64,000 nt of DNA, from NCBI GenBank assembly GCA_964016885.1, contig OZ024741.1, positions 226,672,001-226,736,000 on the forward strand. The letters run 5' to 3'. Source of the DNA: Eledone cirrhosa (Eukaryota). A program made the translations under genes and the position numbers. Positions 43,202 through 43,784 of this stretch are shown piece by piece (the first letter of the stretch is position 1; every line of letters begins with the position of its first letter). The notes beneath the pieces are model-generated. The model did no database searches. It saw only the letters and a list, made by a program, of their open reading frames with translations, and was not told where the DNA came from.

Positions 43202-43784
43202 TAACGAAGGAAATGTGGTAAGGAACCATGTGGACCATAACGCACCAAAGTACTCAATACTTGGGGTAGTAGAGTGGGTAATAGGAACCAGTAAGACCCC
43301 GACGGGCTGAGCTCAAGCCGTTTCGACGGCTAATTCTGGACTCAATTGTCCAGAATTAGCCGTCGAAACGGCTTGAGCTCAGCTGTCGGAGTCTTACTGG
43401 TTCCTATATATATATATATATATATATATATATATAGGAACCAGTAAGACTCCGACAGCTGAGCTCAAGCCGTTTCGACGGCTAATTCTGGACTCAATTG
43501 TCCAGAATTAGCCGTCGAAACGGCTTGAGCTCAGCTGTCGGAGTCTTACTGGTTCCTATATATATATATATATATATATATATATATATATATATATATA
43601 TATATATATATATATATATATAACGAAGGAAGTGTGGTAAGGAACCAGATGGACCATAACGCACCAGAGTACTCAATACTGAGGGTAGTAGAGTGGGAAA
43701 TAGGAATATGTTTAATCCCGAAATAGTCCAGAAATAGCCGTCGAAACGGCTTGAGCTCTGCCGTCGGGATTAAACATTATCCCT
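43202..43784. mobile_element. Cluster of three family H hairpin elements separated by (TA)n (43202-43407, 43435-43558, 43622-43784)
   Basis: Shared core GAGCTCAAGCCGTTTCGACGGCT..TCTGGAC and its reverse complement. The middle copy is a perfect palindrome of about 120 bp around a 6-nt loop. Confidence 0.85.

Follow-up and report, generated by a model that had tools for sequence, protein, structure and literature searches.

The stretch of Eledone cirrhosa DNA analysed here (64,000 nt, hereafter the window) contains four palindromic copies of a small element, Family H, all embedded in (TA)n. They lie where the original prediction had placed them (Table 1). The invariant core that it reported was recovered as a 23-nt sequence with seven matches in the window, against 0.00 expected from 100 shuffles. 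A tail ending in CCTTCGT was found in three copies, and CUGANGA is absent from the inside of the copies, both as claimed. Element positions follow the numbering of the parent element described below, in which +1 is the A of AGTCC.

Table 1. Family H copies and adjacent (TA)n runs in the window; arms are given in parent numbering.
Feature	Position	Strand	Content
Copy 1, whole palindrome	19543-19734		in (TA)n
Copy 1, short arm	19543..19596	-	parent +58 to +5
Copy 1, long arm	19598..19734	+	parent +1 to +138
(TA)n target run left of copy 2	43038..43203
Copy 2, whole palindrome	43204-43404		in (TA)n
Copy 2, long arm	43204..43342	-	parent +138 to +1
Copy 2, junction	43343..43347		one untemplated base (sense-strand G at -1) and AATT filler
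Copy 2, short arm	43348..43404	+	parent +2 to +58
Further (TA)n run	43405-43436
Copy 3	43437..43556		two short arms; junction of copy 2; short-arm variants of copy 2 on both sides
Further (TA)n run	43557-43622
Copy 4, whole palindrome	43623-43783		in (TA)n
Copy 4, long arm	43623..43721	-	parent +138 to about +40
Copy 4, short arm	43725..43783	+	parent +1 to +58
Copy 4, GAAA core	43743-43746		predicted hammerhead cut after 43765
Further (TA)n run	from 43784 onward

Every copy has at least one arm beginning with (A)GTCCAGA, in agreement with the proposed fixed fold-back point, but the partner arm is often shorter, and the long arm of copy 4 halts short of that point. The 11-nt variable segment, said to be matched in both arms, is of the same class in both, but its identity is not constant. 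It differs by one substitution and a 1-nt indel between the arms of copy 1 and by 2 nt between those of copy 4, and the arms of copy 2 show three differences just upstream of it. The long arm of copy 1 comprises the 3′ half of a hammerhead ribozyme and the beginning of the parent 5′ UTR, the latter being the tail of the original prediction. The template base at -1 is T or C in 61 of 61 intact copies, and the untemplated G at this position in the copy 2 junction may be cap-like. Since copy 3 combines two short arms with the junction and the short-arm variants of copy 2, it is most likely a local duplication rather than an independent insertion, in which case the window has three independent insertions.

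The window contains further elements of related kinds. Another (TA)n fold-back with a one-sided tail lies at 59480-59762, and the words CACTCTAC and TATTGAGT are common to it and the Family H tail. A larger palindromic element is located between (TA)n runs at 9262-9824, with related pieces at 61305-62024. Remnants of other Penelope-like element (PLE) ORFs, 30-56% identical to the parent protein, are found at 20041-22152 (+), 24591-26635 (-), 32550-33334 (-), 47731-49740 (+), 11832-12501 (-) and 39866-40830. Hammerhead-like CUGANGA...CGAAA cores of other families are present at 30175 (+), 50498 (+), 59983 (-), 30869 (-) and 34397 (+), with one stem II common to three of the five, and three hammerhead-like cores at 53418, 53882 and 54346 (+) are spaced by 464 nt in a retrozyme-like tandem.

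In the 3.0 Gb genome, a 24-nt form of the core has 52,348 exact matches (26,170 + 26,178), and the reversed core, used as a control, has none. Tight fold-backs, with both arms exact and no more than 30 nt apart, occur at 12,477 sites. In each of these stubs, a copy of the first 58 nt of the element stands head to head with a copy of its first 138 nt, and the outer ends, +58 and +138, lie immediately before TA. Among 80 fold-backs from the loci and the window, 76 join one +138 arm to one +58 arm (p = 3e-18 against one half), three have two short arms and one has two long arms. The same pairing was seen in 15 of 15 very short fold-backs and in all 23 larger two-armed insertions of which both ends were visible; the latter were chosen mostly as head-to-head pairs. 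The predicted retrotransposition into (TA)n by a two-ended route is supported. The class of variable segment agrees between the arms in 60 of 64 classable stubs (shuffled mean 11.5), which is compatible with one RNA or one source per insertion; the discordant arms of the other four mean that one RNA per insertion is not universal. In X1, summed depth is 3.1 million over the stub and 6-12 thousand at the ORF start, a comparison of contigs from four sequencing runs of unknown kind, which cannot show RNA ends and is not expression evidence.

Short, palindromic and flanked by TA, the copies resemble a TA-targeting DNA MITE with terminal inverted repeats, a signature that had been named as grounds for abandoning the retrotransposition reading. 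However, the outer ends are unequal (+58 and +138) in those 76 of 80 fold-backs, the variable part is central, and the arms belong to an RT-encoding element. A MITE origin is scarcely credible.

About a fifth of the arms extend into a 3.5-kb PLE with an intact ORF encoding RT and GIY-YIG domains, which supports the suspected link with PLEs, and 336 sites continue from the tail into the remainder of its 5′ UTR. Locus L035 comprises a pLTR, the 5′ UTR, the intact ORF, the 3′ UTR and a second pLTR, together with an inverted arm. One natural unit from a tandem array is 3,531 nt long, with the ATG at +232 and an ORF of 717 codons. The parent protein (717-719 aa) is encoded by a single ORF, with RT followed by a C-terminal GIY-YIG endonuclease. 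It features RWR at 37 (RWK motif), DKT at 117 (DKG changed to DKT), YRDD at 348, a CxCX5C linker at 572, VIY..YIG at 591, CxxC at 670 and CxH at 698. A Pfam scan of this protein returned no families. Relatives numbered 2,054 among 7,996 scored candidates; they are mostly unnamed and about 700 aa long, and most are about 40% identical.

The C-terminal endonuclease rules out an assignment to Naiad/Chlamys. By the motif set given in the accessible part of PMC8557442, the parent is a Hydra-clade PLE, as read from its sequence. It also displays the (TA)n insertion, pLTR, inverted copy and one-sided tail of this clade. The canonical CUGANGA hammerhead is not found in its pLTR, where position 8 is A in 49 of 51 intact regions and G in two. 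Because it carries a variant hammerhead instead, the parent is a variant rather than a plain Hydra-clade member. A sister family with 6,434 matches (L206-L235; L021:2179) differs in loop II and has compensatory changes in stem II; its initiator-like motif is the same and its tail is related.

In the parent, the 24-nt core of the stubs forms the 3′ half of a type I hammerhead that has a variant core, (U/C)UGANAA. Of stems I and II this half carries only the 3′ strands, along with GAAA, stem III (its loop palindromic), the GUC cut triplet and GGGGU; their 5′ strands, together with the core, lie upstream of +1 in the parent. Cleavage is predicted after +41, and the 11-nt variable segment falls within an internal loop of stem I. 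The reported lack of a hammerhead core in the copies is thus half right: the 5′ half is absent from them and stands in the parent, but the 3′ half is present. The hairpin that had been described is, in silico, the fold of the 5′ end without the upstream half.

The conservation of the core was assessed in 51 intact regions, among which overlapping loci repeat some copies and which were partly retrieved with core-fixing patterns. They have the three-helix type I layout with the U4 G5 A6 N7 .. A9 / GAAA core and a UH triplet. U4, G5, A6 and A9 are invariant, N7 is free, A8 occurs in the 49 regions mentioned and G10.1 in 48. Position 3 is U in 34, C in 16 and G in one; positions 3 and 8 are U3-A8 in 32 regions, a C3-A8 mismatch in 16, U3-G8 in two and another combination in one. 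A two-armed copy at L183:1410-1842 has G at position 8 (U3-G8) in place of the usual A8. A pattern that leaves the core free found 5,356 sites, with identical variants among the first 100 matches listed. A U3-A8 core has been described in a Schistosoma PLE (PMC4209133, in part).

The three-way fold is the MFE structure of two young copies, an array copy and L035. It is not the MFE structure in four of the five intact copies folded, where competing folds win, and the fifth, L035, is no more stable than shuffles (z = -0.24). In a 20-row alignment with the sister family, 93.5% of cells are paired and stem II changes on both sides, which represents few events between two families rather than many independent ones. 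Some sister-family copies have decayed cores. Rfam gave no gathering-level match in the window and only a chance cis-regulatory match in the parent pLTR, and none of its twister, pistol, HDV or hammerhead models fits either sequence. Scans with Rfam models or for CUGANGA miss this hammerhead because of its variant core and 45-nt loop II.

Arm ends were located for the first 100 exact core matches listed on contig C1 by means of 33 templates, which may overstate upstream reach: 81 fall in -7..+11, one is at -17 and 18 continue for at least 30 nt more. A defined RNA 5′ end behind the fold-back point, as the original prediction had it, agrees with this distribution. The position +1 lies inside hammerhead loop II; the cut site is 41 nt further downstream, so that the fixed end is not a product of the hammerhead. 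It is situated on an initiator-like TTAGTC, and the motif T(T/C)A+1GTY can be compared with the Drosophila initiator TCA+1GTY, which has a downstream CGANC element (PMC5580651, in part). At -1, 8 of 61 intact copies match the Drosophila consensus and 53 of 61 have one mismatch to it. Positions +18..22 read CGAAA as against CGANC, which is not independent promoter support since CGAAA is also the ribozyme core. There is a second initiator-like word at -4, and since numerous arms overshoot +1 by 3-7 nt, a start here would take the form of a small cluster. The sister family lacks the TATA-like word near -30. In that family YAGTT stands at an equal distance from stem II in spite of the different loop II, and most of its 30 loci stop at this motif too.

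In 3,295 junctions both arms extend fully to +1. Among the 50 of these that were listed, bases other than T at -1 were G in 16, C in 10 and A in two; G was present on both arms in five junctions, and single-base junctions were C:G in five of six (all by eye). An extra G is a mark of capped 5′ ends in L1 insertions (PMC11702581, in part). Here the G excess is modest, and many of the Gs can be read as a base of the partner arm or as a blunt join to C+5. Same-strand jumps depart from +1 (L238, L240, L242), which is how an enzyme that runs off the end of its template would behave; in L237, L238, L242 and L265 the jump leads from +1 to the ORF start on the same strand, after which +1 is reached again. 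Most such jumps (L237, L238, L240, L242, L258, L263, L265) land between +211 and +254, close to the ORF start, a zone in which the protein may hold the RNA. PLE pLTRs are known to contain internal Inr-type promoters (PMC2377424 and PMC3846280, in part). Taken together, the sequence evidence makes it quite probable that +1 is a capped transcription start, driven by an initiator-type promoter inside hammerhead loop II.

The fixed point might instead be a structural stop, caused either by RT stalling in loop II while copying a read-through RNA or by snap-back of the cDNA at an AT-rich hairpin there. In favour of this, +1 is covered by the 3′ strand of a weak hairpin that loop II is able to form, AAATTT-type palindromes at -1..-5 connect the arms in many junctions, and self-priming has been proposed for inverted PLE junctions (PMC3846280, in part). 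However, the different and GC-richer loop of the sister family still stops at its TTAGT motif, all 18 long-bodied loci that reach this sequence on a second pass go through it, and a snap-back cannot yield a long and a short arm primed in (TA)n on both sides. A structural stop is accordingly rated as improbable.

A ~140-nt RNA of independent origin, trimmed by an unrecognised ribozyme or nuclease and serving as a SINE-like partner of hammerhead-less PLEs, was the original interpretation of the sharp end, and the very high copy number would suit it. But the sequence is that of the parent's own pLTR and 5′ UTR, the junctions are numerous and varied rather than copied from a few masters, and the hammerhead of the parent cuts at +41, not at +1. 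Neither an unrecognised ribozyme or nuclease behind the end nor a partnership with hammerhead-less PLEs is supported; lying on the initiator-like motif, the end fits a transcription start better than a cleavage product. An independent RNA of this kind is very unlikely. Longer copies with a normal hammerhead upstream and random fold-back points had been expected to overturn the prediction; such copies do have a hammerhead upstream, with a variant core, but their fold-back points are not random.

A rarer class of stubs has arms whose ends coincide precisely with the predicted hammerhead cut. In one subfamily, a pattern designed for very short fold-backs matched 303 sites. The first 50, sorted by eye, include 16 with both arms ending at +42/+43 and untemplated filler, mostly A/T, 11 blunt CCCC/GGGG joins, 13 joins in the stem III loop and 10 others. 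A control pattern anchored further downstream matched 264 sites. Of the first 100, about 76 have a longer arm that ends at +41/+42; it ends downstream of there in 18 and upstream in six (by eye), upstream ends being restricted by the 30-nt spacer limit. About 45 of these 76 junctions are not explicable by a CG palindrome, and about 31 are blunt CCCC/GGGG joins that CG microhomology explains equally well. CpG decay was rejected as the origin of CCCC-A/T-GGGG junctions: there are seven of them and no unmutated 9-base form among the 50 listed.

The ratio of cut-site to stem-III joins is 27:13 in the TTACTGG subfamily and 10:29 in the CCTACTCG subfamily (Fisher p = 3e-4, confounded by age and hairpin strength). 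The TTACT class has U3 in 21 of 21 intact copies, and the CCTACTCG class has C3 in 15 of 23. Cut-site stubs occur in the CCTACTCG subfamily too, and there is a hint that this mostly C3-A8 subfamily yields fewer such junctions through its core. In the one in vitro study, of an anole PLE, cleavage was dispensable and no reads ended at the cut site (PMC11167929, in part). From the positions of the stub ends we consider it quite probable that the U3-A8 hammerhead cuts after +41 in vivo and that the cut RNA gives rise to +42 stubs.

Thirty loci entering the 5′ UTR comprise 19 long-bodied ones (16 independent) and 11 short products of jumps or truncation. On the second pass, one of the long-bodied loci ends at +48 and none stops at +1, the remainder being the 18 that pass through. 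Both arms of two-armed long insertions usually read through +1 together. Two arrays have four full units in a row; the one seen in full is 4 × 3,531 nt, with units 100% identical and a short and a long arm closing it. Three to four full 3.53-3.54-kb units are arranged head to tail at L272-L273, where the units are 100% identical and the ORFs intact, at L266-L267 and also at C2:320551596. Beside a four-unit array, at L267:6770-9900 (G000:C1), more than 55 near-identical copies of a 55-nt ORF piece (unit 1755-1812) are repeated head to tail where the long arm ends, possibly as a minisatellite born of repeated RT jumping.

As there is no stop at +1 on the second pass, the long copies probably come from templates without an end there. 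We lean slightly towards a circle of ligated hammerhead-cut ends as the simplest such template for long and tandem copies; long multimeric transcripts or later tandem expansion are possible alternatives. Ligated circles were proposed as templates in 2014, and the accessible part of that paper presents no in vivo evidence for them (PMC4209133). A circle would be dispensable if the mRNA started at +1 and productive copies were made by LTR-like transfer of "strong-stop" cDNA to the RNA 3′ end. The sequence +1..+41 would then be repeated at both RNA ends, and same-strand jumps from +1 do occur. But RT should mostly stop at +1 again, as in ~80% of first-pass arms, and none of the 16 independent long copies does; the tendency of both arms to read through together is also contrary to such a transfer, which we regard as quite improbable.

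Family H thus probably represents stubs of a Hydra-clade PLE, made from the first 58 and 138 bases of its own mRNA and joined head to head. The endonuclease would cut both strands of (TA)n, and the two target ends would prime at two internal RNA sites, each just before UA. On a capped linear mRNA starting at +1, the cDNAs would run off that end and produce the common stubs, whereas hammerhead-cut RNA would give +42 stubs and circular or multimeric RNA the long copies. The two cDNAs would be joined through short microhomologies or untemplated bases, and each joined cDNA would template the other, giving the fold-back.

The mRNA would carry the 3′ half of the ribozyme at its 5′ end and the 5′ half at its 3′ end. 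Tentatively, such a split hammerhead could switch the message to a circular template, although we hold this to be rather doubtful. The paired mRNA ends would form the ribozyme with the whole 3.4-kb element as loop I, remove the capped 41-nt leader and then close the circle. The linear, translatable message would yield dead-end stubs only, and the circle full and tandem copies. In silico, the two halves co-fold into the shape of the ribozyme, and the mRNA 5′ end alone folds into a competing hairpin.

The comparisons that follow refer to the accessible parts of the cited papers. The Hydra clade (PMC8557442), which includes Hydra-1_Obim of Octopus bimaculoides, and the parent have in common a single ORF with RT followed by GIY-YIG, the RWK-like, DKT, CxCX5C, CxxC and CxH motifs, the (TA)n target, partial tandems, an inverted 5′-truncated copy and a one-sided tail. 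The parent protein resembles that of Hydra-1_Obim, as judged by eye. The parent unit is longer (3.5 kb, compared with mostly <3 kb in the clade), as is the tail (80 nt compared with 30-40). Its hammerhead has (U/C)UGANAA, a loop II of about 45 nt and a stem III of 5-6 bp, whereas CUGANGA and short loops characterise all hammerheads listed for the clade. The supplement of PMC8557442 was searched for two 12-15-nt family motifs and gave neither, although line-wrapped sequences could hide them there.

The Poseidon PLE of Anolis (PAc; PMC11167929) has similar priming in vitro, with both DNA strands cut and extended and two internal RT starts bounding the tail, as well as a predicted dimer and an AT-rich target. 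PAc priming needs no homology, whereas here both starts precede UA matching the target; and in contrast to the genomic stubs ending at the cut site here, no in vivo trace of hammerhead cleavage was found for PAc. The hammerhead of Schistosoma Cercyon (PMC4209133) is likewise of type I, lies in the pLTR and has a U3-A8 core and a palindromic loop 3, and the same paper already puts forward ligated circles as the template for copies longer than one unit. Unlike Cercyon, the present family has a full stem III, a long loop II likely holding the transcription start and a C3-A8 subfamily. An Inr promoter inside the pLTR is common to the Drosophila virilis Penelope (PMC2377424) and to Adineta pLTRs with TATA/Inr (PMC3846280); a start inside the ribozyme or a link with stubs is not described in the accessible parts of these papers.

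Animal non-LTR retrozymes (bioRxiv 10.64898/2026.07.22.740005) are also non-coding, PLE-derived and hammerhead-related. They are tandem units with a whole hammerhead each, whereas Family H stubs are single inverted fold-backs with half a hammerhead. Membership in this group was rejected, the stubs lacking the hammerhead 5′ half and being inverted rather than tandem; they show no sign of replication of their own.

Family H stubs are by-products of a known element type. The published literature searched, judged by titles and the opening of abstracts and with subscription papers, Repbase and bioRxiv supplements outside its scope, yielded no variant hammerhead of this kind, start in the loop or cut-site stubs, and these three features were not found to have been previously described. 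What hammerheads do in endonuclease-containing PLEs is described as unclear (PMC8557442, in part). With at least 5,356 intact hammerhead 5′ halves in one genome, the present family escapes scans that require CUGANGA and short loops. The tens of thousands of stubs amount to a fossil end-mapping experiment, in which the likely positions of transcription start and in vivo cleavage are marked, as is the lack of a 5′ end on productive templates. Exact coordinates are now available for testing the 2014 circular-template proposal in a young family with intact ORFs. If the +42 stubs are a true record of cleavage in vivo, they would help to settle what PLE hammerheads do.
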